Source: a virus (lineage: Duplodnaviria > Caudoviricetes). Taken from it: a stretch of DNA of 64,000 bases. Positions 2,411-44,784 of the stretch are shown here, piece by piece (the first letter of the stretch is position 1; every line of letters begins with the position of its first letter). The notes beneath the pieces were generated by a model that did not search any database, was not told where the DNA came from, and worked only from the letters and a program-made list of their open reading frames with translations. The stretch lies in the IMG/VR virus record IMGVR_UViG_3300038393_001386, positions 901 through 64,900 of that record. One strand, 5' to 3'. Made by a program: the position numbers and the translations under genes.

Positions 2411-3259
2411 ATGGCCAATAACCTGCGCATCGTCACCGACAACGCCGCCGACCGCGCGACGATTGCTGCGTCCACCACGGCGGGATCGCTGACCACCGCG
2501 AACCTGAAGACCGATATCAAGAGCGAAGTCTGGCGCGCTACCGGCACGTCGGCCACGCTGACGCTGACCTGGACCAATGCCGAGACGGTCGGTTGCGTTG
2601 TCTGCGCGTTCGCCAACTTCACCAGCCTGGCCACCATGCGCGCCAGGGGCTACGCGAACGTGGCCGATGTGGTGGGCACCGCCACCACCTTGTTCGATAC
2701 CGCCGCCATTCAATGCTGCCCGCCCACGCCGCTCGGCCTATGGGACTGGGGCAATGTGCCGCTCGGCGTGAATGCGTATGCGTTCGGCGGCTTCGTCTAT
2801 GGCGTGGTGTGGCCGACTGCCGCGAATATCCGAAAACTCGTGATCGACATCGCCGATTCCACCAACAGCAATGGCTATGTCGAAGTCGGGCGCATCGTAT
2901 GCGGCCCGTACTGGTCGCCCGCCATCAACGCCGAATACGGCGCGCAAGCGGTGCCGATCGACAGCTCCACGCACCAGCGAACCGATGCCGGCGACCTGTT
3001 CACCAATCGCGGCTTCCGCAGCAAGGCGCTGTCCTTTGACATGGGGTCGATGACGGCGGCGGATCGCATCCGGGTATGGGACATCTTTGTCACCAACGGC
3101 AAGACCCGTCCGCTGTTCCTCTCGCTGTCGCCGCAAAACAATGACGACCCGACCTTGGAGCAGCAAAACCAGGTGTACGGCAAGTTGAACGACACGTCCG
3201 CCGTGGCGTTTAAAACGCTCGGCGTGTTCGCCACCAAGATCGATATCGAGGAAGTGTGA
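2411..3259 (+). CDS. Minor tail protein
   Basis: 282 aa; YVEVGRIVCGPYWSPAINAEYG...STHQRTDAG motif of siphovirus minor tail proteins. Confidence 0.7.
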   Translation: MANNLRIVTDNAADRATIAASTTAGSLTTANLKTDIKSEVWRATGTSATLTLTWTNAETVGCVVCAFANFTSLATMRARGYANVADVVGTATTLFDTAAIQCCPPTPLGLWDWGNVPLGVNAYAFGGFVYGVVWPTAANIRKLVIDIADSTNSNGYVEVGRIVCGPYWSPAINAEYGAQAVPIDSSTHQRTDAGDLFTNRGFRSKALSFDMGSMTAADRIRVWDIFVTNGKTRPLFLSLSPQNNDDPTLEQQNQVYGKLNDTSAVAFKTLGVFATKIDIEEV

Positions 3260-3933
3260 TGAGCAACCGTTTTTATGTGAAGCAGCCAGATTACATCCAG
3301 CAGTTGAACCTGCTGGACGACCAGGTGCAGGCGGGCGCGACCGGCTCGGTATCGGCTGGCTGCACGTCGTTCAACGGCAGGACGGGGCCGATCACGCTGG
3401 TATCGGGTGATGTCACTGGCGCGCTCGGTTATACGCCGTATAACGGCACCACCAACCCGAATGGCTATGTGACCAGCGGGGCGATCGGTTCCTATGCGCC
3501 ACTGGAGTCACCGGCGTTCACTGGCACGCCGACCGCGCCGACTGTCACCTATGGCGGCTGGAATACGCAAGTCATGAATGCGGCCTCGGTCAAGGAAGCG
3601 ATCGTCAAGGGCGCGGGCGTGTCCACGGTCGCGTTTTCGGCGACGCCGAACTTCGCCGCCGCCAGCGATCATGCCTTTTTCATGACGCTGACCGGCAATG
3701 TGACGGGAGCCACGCTTGCCACTGGCACAAACGGGCAAACGCTGCGGCTGTTTCTGCAACAGGATGCCACGGGCAACCGCACCTTTTCCTTTGCCGCCAA
3801 CCAGGTCTTGATCGGCACCGCCGGACCATCGCTCTCGCTGGTCGGCACGGCCAACAGTATCACGATCGTCGGGTTGATCTACCTGACAGCCGTTTCGCGC
3901 TGGCTCGTGGTCTCGGTGTCGGGAGGGTTCTGA
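3259..3933 (+). CDS. Short tail fibre-like protein
   Basis: SFNGRTG and SPAFTGTPTAPT fibre motifs; C-terminal LQQDATGNRT domain. Confidence 0.65.
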   Translation: MSNRFYVKQPDYIQQLNLLDDQVQAGATGSVSAGCTSFNGRTGPITLVSGDVTGALGYTPYNGTTNPNGYVTSGAIGSYAPLESPAFTGTPTAPTVTYGGWNTQVMNAASVKEAIVKGAGVSTVAFSATPNFAAASDHAFFMTLTGNVTGATLATGTNGQTLRLFLQQDATGNRTFSFAANQVLIGTAGPSLSLVGTANSITIVGLIYLTAVSRWLVVSVSGGF

Positions 3934-27185: not shown

Positions 27186-27574
27186 GGGTGCGGCCTGTCG
27201 AATGAAAACTCGATGCCTTTTTCCTGCACAGCATCGGCCATCACTTGCTCGGTATAGATCGCGTATTCAGCCATCGATAACGTTTCCGACGACAGCGCCT
27301 TGCCGGTCCGGTCATGCACGCCAATGAACTTGGCCTTGTAGTAGTCATGCCAGGTTTCCGCCGCAATGCCGGTCGCCTCGCTGATTTCCTTCAACACCGA
27401 GCCGTGATAGAAGCCGCGCTGCGCTGGTGAAATCGGCGCATCGAACGGATGCACCTGGATCACCAGCGGCTTGCCGGCGCTGGCCATCTGCCGCCAGTGC
27501 TCATTGAGCCAGCCGAGCATGCGACTGACATACTGCGCTTCGCGCAACACGAAAACCTTGACCATCATGCTCAT
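27182..27574 (-). CDS. NinB-like recombination protein
   Basis: ISPAQRGFYHGSVLKEIS...ETWHDYYK...SSETLSMAEYAIYTEQV. Confidence 0.7.
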   Translation of the reverse strand: MSMMVKVFVLREAQYVSRMLGWLNEHWRQMASAGKPLVIQVHPFDAPISPAQRGFYHGSVLKEISEATGIAAETWHDYYKAKFIGVHDRTGKALSSETLSMAEYAIYTEQVMADAVQEKGIEFSFDRPHP

Positions 27575-28050
27575 GCCACCTTTCGCGACAGATGCATGCG
27601 ACGCTCATACAATGCGCTGATGCGATTGAGTTTTGTCAGGCGGTCGTACAGCACCACGTTGACACATGCCGCCAAGTTCATGCAGTACGTGGTCGGCACA
27701 TAGACGACATCCCGACACCACGACAGCATGGACTCCCCCAGTGAGCTGTCTTCTGGCCCGAACAGATAAAACGCGCGCTCAGGGTGCGTATAACTGGTTA
27801 ATGGTTTCGCTCCTCGGCTCAGTTCCACGGCGATCGGCACGCAGGAATAGGGCACGATAAGGCGTAGATCATCTGTCTCGATCAACGGCACATGCCGCCA
27901 AGCCTGTTGCGTGTCCGTGGCCGCTTTGCGAAACCGCTGGCCCTGGATCGCCACCAAGGCCGCGTCATAGCAACCTGCCGCGCGCAAGACACCACCGACG
28001 TTGGCGGCTGTCTTGGGCCGATGCAAACCAATTGCTGCGTATCCTCTCAT
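27571..28050 (-). CDS. SpoU/TrmH-family (SPOUT) RNA methyltransferase
   Basis: PKTAANVGGVLRAA, YLFGPEDSSL, CMNLAACVNVVLYDR. Confidence 0.85.
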   Translation of the reverse strand: MRGYAAIGLHRPKTAANVGGVLRAAGCYDAALVAIQGQRFRKAATDTQQAWRHVPLIETDDLRLIVPYSCVPIAVELSRGAKPLTSYTHPERAFYLFGPEDSSLGESMLSWCRDVVYVPTTYCMNLAACVNVVLYDRLTKLNRISALYERRMHLSRKVA

Positions 28051-38365: not shown

Positions 38366-39817
38366 GTGGGCAGCATGCTGGAGCTGCCTGCTGACGCCAA
38401 CTTTGGCGAACAGCATCTGATCAAGTCTTACCGCAAATTGTGTTCGGAAGACTTGTATCGCTTCACGCGCTATTTCTTTCGCTGTCGTTATAAATCCGAC
38501 TGGGTGCAAAATTGGCACCATCAGGCGATTTGCGACAAGTTGATGAAGGTGATCAATGGCGATATCACGCGCTTGATCATCAACCTGCCGCCGCGCTATG
38601 GCAAAACGGAACTGGCAGTCATCAATTTCATCGCCTATGGCATGGCGATTGCGCCCGATAGCGAATTCATCACGGTATCGTTTTCGGCTGGCCGCGCCGT
38701 CAACAGCACCTACATGGCGCGCAATATCGTGATGATGCCGGAGTATCAGGCGCTGTTCCCTGAGACGCAGGTATCCAAGCATGTCAAGGGCAAGGGCGAA
38801 TGGCACACGACCGCTGGCGGCATCGTGTATGGCGCGTCTGCCGATGGCACGATTACCGGCTTTGGCGCGGGCAAGAAGCGCGATGGCTTTGCCGGGGCCT
38901 TGATTATCGATGACCCGCACAAGGCGAATGAAGCCGGGTCCGACGTGATGCGGCCCAAGGTCAATGAGAACTACAACATTACGCTGGCCAATCGTTTGAA
39001 CAAGGTCGAAACCCCGATCATCCTCATCATGCAGCGCTTGCATGAGGATGACATGACGGGCTTTCTGTTGGCCGACGGCGATATCAATGGCGACAAGTGG
39101 GAGCATCTGGTGCTGCCGGCGCTCGATGAGCAGACCGGCGAGGCGCTGTGGCCGAAAATGCATACCGCCGAACGGCTGCAACGGATGGCCAAGGCCAAGC
39201 CGTATATCTTTTCCGGCCAGTACCAGCAGCGACCGGCTCCGCTCGAAGGCGGCATTTTCAAAACGAGCTGGTGGCAATACTACAATCCGAAGGCGGCACC
39301 GCGCTTTCGGCGCATCATCCTGTCATGGGATACCGCGTTCAAGACTGGGCAGGAAAACGATTATTCCTGTTGCACGGTATGGGGCGAAGCCGAGACAGGC
39401 TATTATCTGATCGATATCTGGAAAGAGAAAGTCGAAGCGCCGGTCTTGAAACAAATGGCGGTCTCGATGTATCAGCGCGTGTACCACAATCTGCGCGCGT
39501 CTGGCGTGCTGATCGAGGACAAGGCCAGCGGGCAGGGCTTGATCCAAGAACTCAAGCGCGAGACCAACATGCCGGTGATCCCGATCCAGAAGGGCAAGGG
39601 GCAGGATAAGGTCGAGCTGGCCAATTTGGTTGCGCCAATCATCCAATCCGGGCGCGTGTTCTTGCCGGAAGGGCACCCGGAAGTCGCGGGCTTCGTGCTC
39701 AGTCACGCGCAATTCCCGAATGCGGCGCATGACGACGATGTGGATAGCGGCGTGCAAGCACTATTGTGGTTCTCGCAAGGGCAGCAACTGCGCAAGGTGC
39801 AGCTCACGGGATGGTAA
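38366..39817 (+). CDS. terL: Terminase large subunit
   Basis: Walker A LPPRYGKT, Walker B LIIDDPHK, nuclease SWDTAFK...HDDDVDS. Confidence 0.95.
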   Translation: MGSMLELPADANFGEQHLIKSYRKLCSEDLYRFTRYFFRCRYKSDWVQNWHHQAICDKLMKVINGDITRLIINLPPRYGKTELAVINFIAYGMAIAPDSEFITVSFSAGRAVNSTYMARNIVMMPEYQALFPETQVSKHVKGKGEWHTTAGGIVYGASADGTITGFGAGKKRDGFAGALIIDDPHKANEAGSDVMRPKVNENYNITLANRLNKVETPIILIMQRLHEDDMTGFLLADGDINGDKWEHLVLPALDEQTGEALWPKMHTAERLQRMAKAKPYIFSGQYQQRPAPLEGGIFKTSWWQYYNPKAAPRFRRIILSWDTAFKTGQENDYSCCTVWGEAETGYYLIDIWKEKVEAPVLKQMAVSMYQRVYHNLRASGVLIEDKASGQGLIQELKRETNMPVIPIQKGKGQDKVELANLVAPIIQSGRVFLPEGHPEVAGFVLSHAQFPNAAHDDDVDSGVQALLWFSQGQQLRKVQLTGW

Positions 39818-39839
39818 CTAAAAATGCGACTAAAAAGTA

Positions 39840-39867
39840 TTGGCGGCTACCGGATCGGTAGTATAAT
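39840..39867 (+). promoter_or_regulatory. Rightward promoter with perfect operator
   Basis: TTGGCG-16nt-TATAAT; CTACC GGATC GGTAG at 39847-39861. Confidence 0.75.
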
Positions 39868-40121
39868 AAAGGTGCGTCGTGAATGACGTACCAAACCCCG
39901 GTAGAACGCTGAGGCCATCGGTGCTGGTGACGGGCAAATCATCAGGGATTCAAGCCTGCTCCCGGCGCAGGTGTGGCCAGCCGGGATCGAACATCGCCCT
40001 GCCGAGATAGCCGGCAGTCCGCTGTGGCGTGCTTTCTCCGCAGCGGAGTCCTTTCATCTGCCCCCGGCGCGGATTGCTATCAGCCGGGATTTCCCTTTCC
40101 CCATTCCTTGGGCGGATAACG

Positions 40122-40547
40122 ATGGAACCAAACTTTGAACTGTTGCGCGACGCTTACGCCATCATCGATGGCATTCCGGAATCCTATTTTGCGCTGGACC
40201 AGTGGCGCGAGGATCGACCGTGCGGCACCGTGGCATGCGCCGCTGGCTGGCTGATGCAGCACCCGCAGTTTCAAGTGCTTGGGTTGCGTGACAAGCGCCT
40301 TGATCACTCTCCATATCACTGCCCTGTCTTCAATGTTGGCATTACACAGTTTGTTGGATTTTCAGCAATGGCCCATGTCTTCAATCTATCCCTTGATGAC
40401 GCGGACGACCTTTTCGACTCTGAAGTGACGCGCTTGGACGCGGATTATGAGCATCCGATAGCCATGATCGGCGTGTCCGACAAGGATCGCTGGAAGGCGC
40501 GGGTGCGCAAGTATCTGAAGCAGCATGGCCAGCCGGTGGCCGAGTGA
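40122..40547 (+). CDS. Hypothetical protein
   Basis: CGTVACAAGW motif of a small phage family. Confidence 0.6.
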   Translation: MEPNFELLRDAYAIIDGIPESYFALDQWREDRPCGTVACAAGWLMQHPQFQVLGLRDKRLDHSPYHCPVFNVGITQFVGFSAMAHVFNLSLDDADDLFDSEVTRLDADYEHPIAMIGVSDKDRWKARVRKYLKQHGQPVAE

Positions 40548-40557
40548 AAGGGCAGCG

Positions 40558-40794
40558 ATGAAGAAACTCGCGTTGGATGAAAGTCGCGGACCGACCTTTG
40601 CCTTTAATCAGCGTGATGACGTGGAGCGGATCGTTCGCGTGTTCGCGCTGCGCGGCTATGAAATTGATGCAATGACCGCATACCACGCATGGGGTCGCTA
40701 CAGTGATGCCATGTGTGCTGGCTGGATGATGTTGCCTGACGATGACAATGAAGTGTTTCTGCATGCGCTGTCTTATACGGTCGAAGTGGAATAA
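40558..40794 (+). CDS. Hypothetical protein
   Basis: WGRYSDAMCAGWM motif. Confidence 0.6.
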   Translation: MKKLALDESRGPTFAFNQRDDVERIVRVFALRGYEIDAMTAYHAWGRYSDAMCAGWMMLPDDDNEVFLHALSYTVEVE

Positions 40795-40800
40795 CAGAAT

Positions 40801-40881
40801 GCGTGAGTAGCTCAAAAGGATAGAGCGCCGTCCTCAAATAGTCGAGACGGACATGCGGGTTCGAGTCCCGTCCACGCTCCA
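40801..40881 (+). tRNA. Atypical tRNA-like element (13-nt anticodon loop)
   Basis: GCGTG/CACGC acceptor, GCTC/GAGC D-stem, CCGTC/GACGG anticodon stem, GGGTTCGAGTCCC T-arm, terminal CCA; loop CTCAAATAGTCGA. Confidence 0.6.
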
Positions 40882-41725
40882 AGAACAGCAGTCGTGCCGA
40901 GGTCGCGTCTTAAACGCTTTCGTCGCCTCATTTGACCGAGAAACCGTAAAGCGTGACAGCCGGGAAAGACCGGCCTCAAGCAATGAGCCGACTCATCATG
41001 TGCTTGCCTGACTGGTGGTGCCACCCTGCTGGTCTGGCGAGTCGGCTCACTGGTTGAGAAGGCGGGATGCTGACCCGCTACATGAGCAGAGGACCGCCAT
41101 TGACGGTAAGAGCAGAGAGAGCAGGATGCGGTAGTCGCCGCACCGGAGTACCGGACAAACCATGTGTAGGGTGCTGGCTAACAGGATGCCGAAGACACGC
41201 GACTTGATACGGCAGCCAGATAAATCCGAAAAGTGTTAGCGAAACTGCCTCAAGCCGGGGATCAGCGCCGGCCTCAACCCCAACAAGCGAGCCGATTGTT
41301 CCGTTGCAGACTGCGGCGGTGAACAGACTTGGCCAAGTAGCAGTCGGCTCCCTTGTTGGTGGCGGAACCTTGTGGAGCCAAGCCATGGATTGGTGCAGCG
41401 TGACGGATCACGCCAGCCATCAGCACCGCTAGTTTTCAGCGGCAGGCCCGATTGGCCAAGTGTGGGCTTGAGTCGAAAACGTGACGTTTCAGGCCATTGT
41501 TGCAGACAGGACGAAACGCTGTCGCCGGACACTGTAACCGGCACCAACAGGCAAGGGCAGATATACCGGACGCATGGGCATGCACGGCGTCGCAGGCGAC
41601 CAAAGTGGACGCACCGGAGCCACCCGGCTGGCGCAGCTTTCTGTCCTTCCCTGTTGGTGACAGCAACACTCTGGTTCAGGAATCACGCGCCCGACTGGTG
41701 CGCTGTCATCAACGCTTAACTACAG
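40882..41725 (+). ncRNA. Candidate large structured non-coding RNA (GOLLD/ROOL-like size and context)
   Basis: ~850 nt with no convincing gene; helices 40984-40994/41039-41049, 41280-41298/41341-41359, 41542-41560/41641-41659; recurrent CCGG..CCGG hairpins. Confidence 0.5.
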
Positions 41726-41734
41726 GAGAACGAT

Positions 41735-41938
41735 ATGGCGATGGTAGAAGTTGGTTCAGTTGAAAAGATATTTTCTGACGCGCAAGCCGAAATCGATGAG
41801 GAAACGAGCGAGAAAGCGAAGAAGGCGATCAAGGCCAAGCTGCGCGAGCTGAGCGCGGCCAGGCAAGTGGTCGCCAATATCGAAGCGCAGGTGCGCGATT
41901 TGAAAGCGAGCATTCTCGATGGCAGTTTCACAGGTTGA
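41735..41938 (+). CDS. Coiled-coil hypothetical protein
   Basis: CAGGAG RBS, 67 aa. Confidence 0.6.
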   Translation: MAMVEVGSVEKIFSDAQAEIDEETSEKAKKAIKAKLRELSAARQVVANIEAQVRDLKASILDGSFTG

Positions 41939-42521
41939 ATTCAATCCGCGCTTGCCGGTCGAGTGGTGCGGCTGGCAATCCGATACGGTGACGCTTGGCC
42001 GCTGCGGCTGGAATCTCGCGATCAACCGCCAATACGTTGATCTGCAGATGCTCGGCAATCCCGTTGCCATGAAAATCCCGACGCGCTATGAAATCGTGCT
42101 GTCGCATCCCAGTCTCGATGTCACGCTGATGTGCTATGACTACGACTTGCAGCAAGTGCAGGTCGCCGTGCGGATGGATGGCCTCATGGGTGGCACGCAT
42201 GCGCCGCCGATCCGCTTCCAGCATGTGATGCGCCGGACCGACATGGTGCGTCATACGCCAACGCTGGTGCCGTTTGCTGACATGGCATGGGTCCAGACCG
42301 AGCCGACGATTGCAGACGTGGACACGCCGCTCTATCGTCTGCCGCTGTTCAAGGCCTTGCATGACCAATCTCAGGCGCAGGAATTGATTGTGGAGCCGCG
42401 CGACGTGCAATCGATCCTGGAGGAACTATTGAAGATGCAAGCGCCGCAGATGCGGGAAGTCCGGCAGCGCGAGCAGAAACGGCAAGTCCACGCGCAAATC
42501 ATTTCCGTGGAGGCAGCATGA
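41919..42521 (+). CDS. Hypothetical protein
   Basis: EWCGWQSDT...GW motif; 200 aa. Confidence 0.6.
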   Translation: MAVSQVEFNPRLPVEWCGWQSDTVTLGRCGWNLAINRQYVDLQMLGNPVAMKIPTRYEIVLSHPSLDVTLMCYDYDLQQVQVAVRMDGLMGGTHAPPIRFQHVMRRTDMVRHTPTLVPFADMAWVQTEPTIADVDTPLYRLPLFKALHDQSQAQELIVEPRDVQSILEELLKMQAPQMREVRQREQKRQVHAQIISVEAA

Positions 42522-42672
42522 ACGACAAGCAAGCGAAGAAGTTGCGCCGGCTGGCGCGGCAACAGACCGAAGGTTATCCAGAGCGCATCCATGTGACCAA
42601 CCGCATGGGATCGGTGGTGCTGCATCCCTCCTGCACACGCGCCGTGTATCAGCAACTGAAGAAGGAGAAAGC

Positions 42673-43041
42673 ATGAAAGACTTTAGTGAATGGGTCGTGA
42701 AGACGCCGGACTGGCGTAACGACAAAGTCGATGTGGAGCAAGCCTATCCTGGCGTGCTCAATGACGGCATCACAGCGGACAAGCTCGCGGCCACCACGAT
42801 TCGGGGCGAACCCGTGCCGGTTGGCACGCGCGACGTGCAAGTGTATCTGGTGTACTGCTCATCCGCGGATCGGCGCGGGTCGTACTATACCCCCTTATCT
42901 GTGCTGGTGAAGGGCGGCACCGCACAGGAGGCCTTCTTGGAAGGGGTTAAGTTGCTGATGGCCGATCCAGCCTTCGATCCGCGCAAGTCTTGCACGATCT
43001 GCATCGAAGAACGGCAGATGCGCGAAATCTTGAAAGCGTGA
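42673..43041 (+). CDS. Hypothetical protein
   Basis: AGGAG RBS, 122 aa. Confidence 0.5.
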   Translation: MKDFSEWVVKTPDWRNDKVDVEQAYPGVLNDGITADKLAATTIRGEPVPVGTRDVQVYLVYCSSADRRGSYYTPLSVLVKGGTAQEAFLEGVKLLMADPAFDPRKSCTICIEERQMREILKA

Positions 43042-43138: not shown

Positions 43139-43166
43139 GCCCCGCCTCGTGCGGGGCTTTTCTTTT
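43139..43166 (+). terminator. Intrinsic terminator in the portal leader
   Basis: GCCCCGC-CTCGT-GCGGGGC-TTTTCTTTT. Confidence 0.8.
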
Positions 43167-43290
43167 GGTTTCCCGTGAAACGTCCAAAATGGACGTAATG
43201 CAACCTTTATTTCCGCAAAGCAGCGTCATTCCGGTATAGTTGCGAACTAGAAATGCGACCATTTCGGTCTTGCAACTACCGGGAGGCGCG

Positions 43291-44784
43291 ATGCCGGGCG
43301 TCCGCACACAACATAAAGCCTATAAGGCCAGCCTGCCGGTCTGGCAACGCTGCCGCGACGCTGCCGCCGGCCAGGATGCGATCCGCGCCGCTGGCGAAAC
43401 CTACCTGCCGCGCCTGGCCGACCAGGATAGCGCCGCTTATACCTCGTACCTGACCCGCGCCAACTGGTTCAACGCCACCTCGCGCACCATCGAAGGCTTG
43501 AAGGGCATGCTGTTCCGCAAGCCGGAGCAGGTGGACGTGCCGGAAGGCATCCTGCCGCTGCTCGATGATGTGACGATGGGTGGCGAACCGCTGCACCTGT
43601 TCGCGCAGCAGATCGCGCAGGAAGTCTTGACCGTGGGCCGCGTCGGCCTATTGGTCGATCATCCGAGCGCGCCGGTCGATAGCGCGCCGCTGACCATCGC
43701 CCGCGCGCAACAGCTCGGCATGCGCCCGAAACTGGCGCAGTATTGCGCCGAATCGATCTGGAACTGGAAGTGCGAGCGCATCAACAATGTCCACCAACTG
43801 ACGATGGTGGTGCTGCATGAAGATGCGCAAGTGCCAGGTGACGATGAATTCGACGTGAAAACCGAAGACCGCTGGCGCGTACTCGACCTGCAACTGACCA
43901 CGCAGGGGCCGGTGTACCGGCAGCGGCTGTTCAAGGTGGACAAGCAAACCGACAAGGATGTGCTGCTCGAAGTGGTGTACCCGCAGCTCGATGGCAAGTT
44001 CCTCACGGCCATCCCGTTCACCTTCATCGGTGTCGAAGGCTTGCATGCAGACCCGGAAATCCCGCCGCTGGTCGATCTGGTCGATGTTAACCTGTCGCAC
44101 TTCCGCGTGTCAGCCGATTATGAGCACGGCTGCCATTTCACCGGCTTGCCCACGCCGTACATCGCCGGCTATTTTGCCGACACCGATGCCAAGCTGCACG
44201 TCGGCTCCTTGACCGCCTGGGTGTTCCAGAGCGAAAACACGAAAGTCGGCTACCTGGAATTCACCGGCCAGGGCTTGTCGTGCCTGGTGGAGAACATGGT
44301 CGCCAAGAAGGACATGATGGCGATCCTCGGTGCGCGGCTGTTGACCACCGACAGCGGCAGCAACCAAACCGCGATGACGGCGGCGATCCACCACGGCGGC
44401 GAAACCTCCATTTTGGGCGCGATCGCGCAAACCATTTCGCTTGGCCTGCAGCGGCAACTGACGCTGTTCTGCGCCTGGGCTGGCCAGGCGGCGGACGTGG
44501 TGTACCAGGTCAACCAAGAGTTTTATCCGTTCCCGGTCGATGCGCCAACGCTGACGGCGGTGGTGGCCGCATGGCAGCAGGGCGCGATCAGCGATGAAAC
44601 CAAGTTCGATTACCTGCAGCAGCGCGAAGTGATCGGGCCGGAAGTCACATTCGAGGAAGAACAGCAGCGGCTGGCCAAGCAACAGGCCGAGCGCGATGCG
44701 CGCGAGCAGGCGAAAGCCCAAGCCAACGCGGCGCTGCAGGTGGCGACTGCCAACCAGATGCCGGATAAAGTGCCGCCGAAATAA
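43291..44784 (+). CDS. Portal protein (DUF4055-like)
   Basis: GGGAGG RBS; YLTRANWFNATSRTIEGLKG, IPFTFIG...PPLVDLVDVNLSHF, YLEFTG. Confidence 0.88.
   Translation: MPGVRTQHKAYKASLPVWQRCRDAAAGQDAIRAAGETYLPRLADQDSAAYTSYLTRANWFNATSRTIEGLKGMLFRKPEQVDVPEGILPLLDDVTMGGEPLHLFAQQIAQEVLTVGRVGLLVDHPSAPVDSAPLTIARAQQLGMRPKLAQYCAESIWNWKCERINNVHQLTMVVLHEDAQVPGDDEFDVKTEDRWRVLDLQLTTQGPVYRQRLFKVDKQTDKDVLLEVVYPQLDGKFLTAIPFTFIGVEGLHADPEIPPLVDLVDVNLSHFRVSADYEHGCHFTGLPTPYIAGYFADTDAKLHVGSLTAWVFQSENTKVGYLEFTGQGLSCLVENMVAKKDMMAILGARLLTTDSGSNQTAMTAAIHHGGETSILGAIAQTISLGLQRQLTLFCAWAGQAADVVYQVNQEFYPFPVDAPTLTAVVAAWQQGAISDETKFDYLQQREVIGPEVTFEEEQQRLAKQQAERDAREQAKAQANAALQVATANQMPDKVPPK

Follow-up and report, generated by a model that had tools for sequence, protein, structure and literature searches.

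The subject of this analysis is a gene-free tract (positions 40882-41734, + strand) in a 64,000-nt stretch of viral DNA (Duplodnaviria; Caudoviricetes), referred to below as the window, which comprises positions 901 to 64,900 of the IMG/VR virus record IMGVR_UViG_3300038393_001386; the record is 64.9 kb long and is estimated to be 83% complete. The tract lies in a 3.4-kb insert that separates the large terminase gene (38366-39817) from the portal gene (43240-44784), and all features of the insert are located on the + strand. It is preceded by a tRNA-shaped element (40800-40880) and followed by the next gene (41735) with its ribosome-binding site (RBS) and ATG. An earlier note on this DNA, made from the letters alone, had proposed that the tract encodes a giant phage RNA. 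Our analysis points to three tandem hairpin units rather than to one giant molecule, and the first of these units opens with a 22-nt hairpin that reads as a copy of a motif scattered over phages of many bacterial phyla.

The tract is non-coding, as indicated by three lines of evidence. The codon-position GC content is flat over 40880-41700, with a periodicity of 0.25-0.5 in the flanking genes; no gene was called by JGI within exactly this gap on either of two identical contigs; and the seven open reading frames (ORFs) of the tract (65-115 aa, both strands) gave no Pfam or PHROGs match below E=0.068. The statement of the earlier note that the region has no ORF with an RBS or typical codon usage is thus upheld. 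One could still propose that one or more small proteins have been overlooked, given that ORFs of 65-115 aa are present on both strands. We consider this extremely unlikely, since codon-position periodicity, JGI gene calls, and Pfam and PHROG matches are all absent from the tract, and no RBS was seen ahead of its ORFs.

Within the tract, three tandem units of about 280 nt are spaced 291 and 274 nt apart, each consisting of a GCCGG/CCGGC hairpin and then a long imperfect hairpin (all on the + strand). In the first unit, the short hairpin (GCCGGGAAAGACCGGC at 40959) spans 40954-40975 and includes the flank UGACA, the stem strands GCCGG (40959-40963) and CCGGC (40970-40974), the loop GAAAGA (40964-40969), and a final C. 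It is followed by long hairpin A, with 20-nt arms at 40975-40994 and 41039-41058, of which 18/20 positions form Watson-Crick pairs (90%). The second unit contains short hairpin B (GCCGG-GGAUCAGCG-CCGGC, 41254-41272), which has neither the UGRCA flank nor the GARAGA loop described below, and long hairpin B, whose arms (41280-41307 and 41332-41359) are 79% complementary with two U-G wobbles. In the third unit, short hairpin C (GCCGG-ACACUGUAA-CCGGC, 41524-41542) also comes without the constant words, and the arms of long hairpin C (41533-41561 and 41640-41668; core about 41542-41660) are again 79% complementary. All helices named in the earlier note, including GCCGGGAAAGACCGGC, were found at their places, with 79-90% complementarity for the three long ones. 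Its description of recurrent CCGG-loop-CCGG hairpins holds for the number of copies (three, at 40959, 41254, and 41524), although the conserved loop and flank are confined to the first.

The long hairpins share a number of sequence words. Hairpins A and B have in common GAGCCGA and AGUCGGCUC.CU.GUUG, hairpins B and C have in common CCAACA.GC and CCCU.GUUGGUG, and the apical word GCCACCC.GCUGG is common to A and C. The base of long hairpin C (CACCAACAGG / CCUGUUGGUG) resembles that of long hairpin B, and the inner stem GAGCCGA/UCGGCUC of B is replaced in C by AAGGGCAG/CUGUCCUU, so that both arms have changed together. Based on these shared words and two-sided changes, the three units are diverged paralogues with retained pairing. 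The two-sided changes are the only evidence for selection on structure that comes from the tract itself.

The folding statistics are less uniform than the earlier note had assumed in describing all 850 nt as highly paired, and that description does not hold. The z-score of the minimum free energy (MFE) of the whole tract is only -2.16 (20 shuffles). A scan of 120-nt windows singles out just two elements, hairpin A (40960-41079, z -4.5) and hairpin B (41260-41379, z -2.5), and averaged over all windows the tract has a z of -0.66, comparable to the -0.48 of the terminase and portal coding controls; hairpin C, with its 136 nt, is beyond the reach of such windows. The + strand of hairpins A and B folds 2.6-5.7 kcal/mol better than the - strand, the local fold of long hairpin B has a z of -2.5 on the + strand vs -1.7 on the - strand, and the wobble pairs of hairpins B and C are U-G on the + strand.

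The wider family of the first short hairpin came to light through an unrelated 13-kb contig from a soil run that contains two exact 20-21-mers of the tract. The 21-mer GACAGCCGGGAAAGACCGGCC, which corresponds to the first short hairpin and its flank, occurs exactly in 57 IMG/VR contigs (selected with C directly after the stem) and in 10 GTDB contigs, where about 0.3 matches are expected by chance. The GTDB carriers are labelled Clostridiales, Eggerthellaceae, Spirochaetales, Burkholderiales, Paraburkholderia, Marinobacterium, Arsukibacterium, uncultured proteobacterium, and Mycobacterium (two contigs). We defined the motif by three pattern scans of IMG/VR, each leaving a different part free, and the family is larger than the counts given here, which are lower bounds. 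The resulting consensus is U-G-R-C-A-[G NNN G]-G-A-R-A-G-A-[C N'N'N' C]-A, after which three or four G-poor positions follow. The scan with a free stem (TGACAGNNNGGAAAGACNNNC) gave at least 83 non-redundant matches, about 72 of them fully Watson-Crick paired. When the hairpin was fixed, the 5' flank among the at least 109 matches listed was U in 96, G in 105, A in 86 or G in 19, C in 105, and A in 95, and the base after the stem was A in 85 (78%), G in 16, C in 5, and T in 3. The scan in which flank and stem were kept constant listed at least 105 matches, 81 of them with the loop GAAAGA and 19 with GAGAGA. Altogether, the family includes at least 276 IMG/VR contigs with at least 270 non-redundant copies and at least 16 stem versions.

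Covariation in the stem was assessed on an alignment of 146 motif sequences, in which 98.9% of the cells pair. Two-sided changes number 125 vs 38.6 in shuffles, the covariation score drops from 0.485 to 0.126 upon shuffling (0/500 shuffles reached the former value), and in slid controls pairing collapses to 10-41%. The alignment also contains 11 U-G wobbles on the sense strand and 8 non-pairs. The window holds exactly one copy of the motif, 40954-40975. Its stem GCCGG/CCGGC, closed by G-C pairs at both ends, is the commonest among the stem versions; its GAAAGA loop agrees with the hexaloop GARAGA and is the same as in the 81/105 members listed above; and its flank UGACA (40954-40958) abuts the stem and is identical in 69/109 members listed. 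The copy is located on the same strand as all cassette genes, in an ORF-free gap, 74 nt after the tRNA-like element. By these features, the first short hairpin reads as a member of the pan-phage UGRCA/GARAGA family, and as far as the searched sequences go the motif itself is an uncatalogued RNA signal, new to Rfam 15, from which it is absent. Its sequence was likewise not found in a searched literature of 8.4 million papers, where a search with a sub-word returned only macrophage primer papers.

The motif is tied to tRNA genes on its own strand. In at least 37/270 listed copies, a tRNA on the same strand starts 2-12 nt (mode 6) after the stem, where 0.12 would be expected, and in at least 22 of 270 a same-strand tRNA ends within 150 nt upstream, as in the window; no tRNA on the opposite strand was found within 300 nt among the 270 copies listed. 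Two loci (L081 and L018) have three or four motif copies interleaved with tRNAs and tRNA-like pieces. The flanks of the motif copies are mutually unrelated, and only sub-groups share more than the 22 nt, such as about 120 nt that are 87% identical between Xanthomonas phage DIBBI and coliphage mEp390. The neighbouring genes include those for helicases, RecT/RecE, primases, RNA ligase, head proteins, small terminase, and repressors. An all-against-all BLAST of the neighbours gave no cluster common to more than four loci, and the PHROG scans of 127 downstream and 131 upstream ORFs gave no family in more than three.

These data bear on the possibility that the palindromes act as DNA, as protein-binding sites, as a replication or packaging signal by the terminase genes, or as recombination sites. 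The location of the tract between the terminase and portal genes, the occurrence of the motif upstream of the small terminase gene in phages DIBBI and ESP2949-1, and the capacity of long inverted repeats to form cruciforms would be in line with such a role. However, the family hairpin is always sense to the neighbouring genes and tRNAs, conservation is found in the asymmetric loop and variation in the arms (opposite to what a dimeric operator would show), the U-G wobbles of the alignment on the sense strand outnumber its non-pairs, and no -10 element stands at a fixed distance, hence no sigma-70 promoter. We regard a function as DNA as very unlikely.

Several specific candidates for the hairpin were rejected. 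For a sigma-70 promoter with TGACA as the -35 element, there was no TANNNT enrichment at any offset in 119 unbiased instances, and the start site of the tRNA-adjacent copies would fall inside the tRNA. A MerR-type or other dimeric operator does not agree with variable arms around a fixed asymmetric centre. An intrinsic terminator was dismissed since no U-run follows the hairpin, and a UGA stop or recoding signal since the upstream ORFs do not end at UGA. The host range is too wide, with no shared neighbour protein, for a CsrA, Hfq, or N-protein site. No match to an Rfam model of a hammerhead, HDV, or other known ribozyme was obtained for the window or for 16 loci with the motif, and for an HDV-like or theta ribozyme the base after the helix is A, not the catalytic C, in 78% of the copies listed. 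The HK022 put site is a distinct element.

Cultured carriers of the motif exist, including mEp390 (E. coli; motif at 27451-27471 of NC_019721), Pokken (Stenotrophomonas), Alexa (Acinetobacter), ESP2949-1 (Cronobacter), and DIBBI. In addition to these, blastn found it in P7641, Medea1, and Cruim01 as well as in phages of Synechococcus, Planktothrix, and Microcystis, bearing in mind that some of the 92 phage records listed by blastn match by chance, within tail genes. The motif is sense to its neighbours in nine annotated cultured phages and lies in ORF-free gaps of 400 to more than 1700 nt. These gaps measure 413 nt in Pokken (ahead of a tRNA cluster), 536 nt in Alexa and 704 nt in P7641 (two motif copies each), 750 nt in MinM2, 770 nt in Medea1, and more than 1400 and more than 1700 nt in DIBBI and ESP2949-1, respectively. 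In mEp390, the gap of about 780 nt belongs to the leftward early operon and is homologous to unannotated stretches of E. coli prophages.

The mEp390 locus shows further peculiarities. About 700 nt (NC_019721 about 27190-27880; 2090-2780 of our contig L085) open the leftward early operon, and this stretch was left unannotated by PGAP in 36 E. coli genomes. The 81-aa 'gp36' annotated in mEp390 overlaps a block that is conserved as non-coding in Klebsiella phage P7641, which makes this gene doubtful. Both mEp390 (L085 2425-2445) and DIBBI (L089) have a second small hairpin, AACG-GGAAAGG.-CGUU, about 60 nt upstream of the motif; its loop resembles that of the motif, which hints that the element may be able to duplicate locally. 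A tandem arrangement was seen on a 322-kb jumbo phage contig (L107, 4115-4520, - strand), where 3.3 units of 78 nt each open with the motif, with a strong terminator at the end of the array and then a small hydrophobic ORF; the layout recalls the RNA arrays of type III toxin-antitoxin systems, and no ToxN-like gene was seen. On a Mycobacterium nativiensis contig (L024, 5397-5960, - strand), a 20-gene tRNA array contains an HNH endonuclease gene, with the motif 40 nt after it and a tRNA-like remnant. The cyanophage MinM2 also carries the motif 170 nt upstream of an HNH gene.

The tRNA-like element that the earlier note had placed ahead of the tract is present at 40800-40880 (+ strand), where it was detected by the tRNA model RF00005, with a score of 39.3 bits against a gathering score of 29, and by ARAGORN. 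It has an encoded CCA and a 13-nt anticodon loop. The RF00005 alignment shows the anticodon loop enlarged by 8 nt and the 3' strand of the acceptor stem shortened by a deletion, and ARAGORN reports 'tRNA-???' with an abnormal anticodon loop and no amino acid assigned. The enlarged loop disqualifies it as a canonical tRNA with a 7-nt anticodon loop. We also observed a similar tRNA-like stretch on a 4-kb contig of high depth (133x) in one soil run (X6). The phage element differs from it by two substitutions and five extra bases, all in the anticodon-loop/variable region, and a 151-nt low-depth contig in run X5 has the same differences as the X6 contig. This comparison suggests that the element descends from a normal tRNA through expansion of the anticodon loop.

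The remaining features of the insert form a 3.3-kb promoter-to-terminator unit (start 39840, end 43157). Since no internal terminator-like site was seen between its ends, it is best described as a single transcription unit. A sigma-70-like promoter, TTGGCG-16-TATAAT (39840-39867, + strand), was found by consensus scan (10/12), and its spacer is filled by a perfect 6-3-6 palindrome, CTACCG-GAT-CGGTAG (39847-39861), read from the sequence and a candidate repressor operator for the entire insert. An operator-controlled promoter at 39840 had been proposed in the earlier note; the palindrome and a consensus match to a promoter are present there, which makes it a candidate. An untranslated leader of about 250 nt (39868-40121, + strand) with flat codon-position GC precedes the first cassette ORF; its first 120-nt window folds with a z of -3.1 on the + strand only, and it gave no Rfam match. 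Two small ORFs of 141 aa (40122-40547) and 78 aa (40558-40794) are located before the tRNA-shaped element, and four small ORFs (67, 200, 52, and 122 aa) at 41735-43041 close the cassette, all on the + strand. No Pfam or PHROG family was found for any ORF of the insert. Directly ahead of the portal gene lies an intrinsic terminator, GCCCCGC-CUCGU-GCGGGGC plus a U-run (43139-43157, + strand). This is the layout of a phage 'moron' cassette. The homologues of the 141-aa protein occupy unrelated contexts without the RNA tract, and those of the 200-aa protein are found in other contexts. One contig with a homologue of the 141-aa protein (L011) has a variant of the hairpin with a UGGCA flank at 2091-2111; the surrounding early operon is of lambdoid type, and an RtcB RNA ligase gene (2604-3803) follows about 500 nt downstream.

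The search for relatives of the whole tract returned only copies that are 100% identical. Nine soil or rhizosphere runs contain the window wholly or partly in their Logan contigs, and the contigs of four such runs that were compared with the stretch gave identical fragments with no variants inside the tract. Two JGI metagenome contigs (L007 and L008) carry the stretch unchanged, with zero variation between copies. The host GC of these soil phages is roughly 58%. In its own IMG/VR record, the tract is present in a single copy, and the IMG/VR relatives of the terminase (at most 41% identical) have neither the tract nor any tRNA. No match was obtained by blastn of 39820-41740 against 50,697 phage records, pattern searches of IMG/VR with the 200-aa and 141-aa neighbour proteins found nothing, and a search with the 20-mer AGTCGGCTCCCTTGTTGGTG gave only a chance match inside a coding region (L017). 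The distant homologues of the neighbour proteins among 5.8 billion proteins are located in unrelated contexts.

This lack of relatives conserving the tract is what would be expected if it were a decaying spacer, that is, duplicated hairpin DNA and a stray copy of a mobile hairpin in a moron, transcribed as an untranslated spacer. The loss of the constant words from units B and C and the fact that most of the tract folds like shuffled sequence also agree with this explanation. On the other hand, 850 nt of idle DNA are rarely tolerated by phage genomes, and the three long hairpins stay paired through changes on both arms. The identity of the sequence across several soil and rhizosphere samples speaks in the same direction, but this is weak evidence because the samples represent one strain. 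On balance, we find decay improbable.

The earlier note had suggested that the tract belongs to GOLLD, to ROOL, or to a new class. GOLLD and ROOL are large ornate RNAs of phages and prophages that are often found beside tRNA genes and form multimers according to cryo-EM (10.1101/2024.12.08.627333). The tract resembles them in being phage-borne, non-coding, several hundred nucleotides long, and adjacent to a tRNA-type element. Membership in these classes has to be rejected, since the Rfam 15 covariance models for GOLLD and ROOL gave no match in cmscan of the whole window at the gathering score or of 39800-42000 at E<=10 on both strands; a tRNA was the sole Rfam match at the gathering score, and E<=10 adds only chance-level microRNA and small RNA (sRNA) matches. 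The tract further differs from GOLLD and ROOL by its three repeated hairpin units and by the fact that only its 22-nt hairpin is widely shared. The broader idea of an uncatalogued structured-RNA locus is upheld: the locus is non-coding, phage-associated, tRNA-linked, and provided with a covarying first hairpin. Its folding statistics do not speak for a globally ornate fold.

A new class analogous to GOLLD and ROOL can also be envisaged, in which the hairpin units are domains of a single 850-nt molecule with one large tertiary fold, released by cleavage at the tRNA-like element. Its size, phage origin, and position beside this element, the lack of ORFs, the z-score for the whole tract, and the location of the motif in long ORF-free gaps of other phages are compatible with such a molecule. 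However, there is no Rfam match, local folding rises above the coding controls at two hairpins only, and no homologue was found on which long-range pairs could be tested. Moreover, the other phages share only the 22-nt hairpin (at most about 120 nt within sub-groups) and no large fold, and the internal repeats suggest modules rather than a single fold. We judge one large RNA to be unlikely.

We consider it somewhat probable that the tract is the non-coding middle of a moron-like unit, composed of three tandem hairpin units and not of a giant RNA, the first unit carrying a pan-phage signal. The tract is one of the 'RNA islands' found next to tRNA genes in many phages, and the hairpin is probably an RNA processing or recognition mark. 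As a likely mechanism, the polycistronic transcript would be cut at the tRNA-shaped element and further cut at or near the conserved hairpin by the host tRNA-processing machinery, with RNase P as the prime suspect. Such cleavage would separate the upstream from the downstream mRNAs and free hairpin-capped stable RNAs; units B and C would be diverged duplicates that kept their stems and lost the recognition words. Transcription, cleavage, and any function of the long hairpins are inferred here.

A number of observations weigh against this proposal. The involvement of RNase P is suggested by position and sequence resemblance only, and in the window it is a long hairpin, not a tRNA, that follows the motif; across the family, there was no enrichment over controls for a helix starting right after it. 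The window copy has C (40975) instead of the consensus A after the stem, a form seen in 5/109 members listed, which makes it a minority variant of the family and does not exclude it. Except at hairpins A and B, the folding of the tract does not exceed that of coding DNA. As the searches yielded no diverged homologue of the 850 nt, selection is evident in the first 22 nt only. The runs that contain the window sequence are DNA runs, and no RNA run is listed among them.

Given the dense packing of phage genomes, a long tract without genes next to tRNA genes is likely to have a function, and very few such tracts have a known role. The window adds a soil-phage case of a 22-nt hairpin that recurs near-identically across phages of Proteobacteria, Cyanobacteria, Actinobacteria, and other groups. 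Conservation over so diverse a set of hosts suggests that the hairpin has a partner shared by all bacteria, and the identity of this partner would show how phages organise RNA processing. The motif would also be useful to annotators as a marker of phage RNA islands.

With regard to known systems, the motif can be compared with the RNase P RNA of the host. Two conserved regions of E. coli rnpB have the sequences GA-GGAAAG-U-CCGGGC and C-GACAG-AA-CCCGGC-UUA; their CCGG strands pair with each other as helix P4 of the catalytic core. Similarly, the motif has U-GACAG and G-GAAAG-A, each followed by a stem strand, with the strands pairing as around helix P4, and it is located 2-12 nt from the RNase P cleavage sites of pre-tRNAs. 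In contrast to P4, the two halves come in the opposite order, the pairing of AAG with CUU that makes up the second half of P4 is not possible, the stem varies freely where P4 is nearly fixed, and the words GAGAGA and UGGCA are tolerated. The resemblance may be a chance match of a 5-mer and a 6-mer in 377 nt. It is a decidedly unlikely idea that the motif imitates the catalytic-core region of the host RNase P RNA and acts as a handle for capturing RNase P or its protein subunit. As a candidate, RNase P fits the host range, because a wide host range demands a partner present in all bacteria. If the idea were true, phages of all phyla would punctuate their transcripts in this way and mature their own tRNAs ahead of host RNAs, and the tract in the window would be an array of hairpin RNAs released by RNase P.

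Other comparisons concern small phage RNAs. The stable RNAs of the T4 tRNA cluster (species 1 and 2, rnaC/rnaD) are small non-tRNA RNAs that are co-transcribed with the phage tRNAs and released as single small molecules by tRNA-processing enzymes. Compared by description only, they resemble our locus as small non-tRNA RNAs beside phage tRNAs; the difference is that the tract in the window consists of tandem hairpin units, and to our knowledge the T4 RNAs do not carry the motif hairpin. The boxB element of lambda-type nut sites has a 5-bp stem and a purine-rich, GNRA-like loop (GAAAA or GAAGA), and it is similar to the motif as a 5-bp hairpin with a purine-rich loop in an early transcript (the leftward early operon in the case of mEp390). 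As far as we know, boxB sequences co-vary with the N protein of each phage and are not shared between distant phages, whereas the loop and flank of the motif are constant across phyla with no shared neighbouring protein. The put RNA of HK022, of about 70 nt with two stems (PMC9378689), differs from the motif in both sequence and size.

The nearest published analogue in lifestyle is provided by the theta ribozymes, minimal HDV-like ribozymes at the 3' ends of phage tRNAs, which are mostly found in phages of gut Bacteroidota; of those associated with tRNAs, 77% are reported to be no more than 1 nt away from the tRNA 3' end (PMC10879173). Like them, the motif appears as a small, phage-restricted element that is sense to its neighbours, occupies non-coding gaps, and keeps a fixed distance from a tRNA end. 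The two differ in that theta elements are located after tRNAs and cut the RNA at their own 5' end, whereas the motif precedes tRNAs by 2-12 nt, has about 22 nt and no nested pseudoknot, and is found in phages of many phyla from soil, water, and enteric sources.

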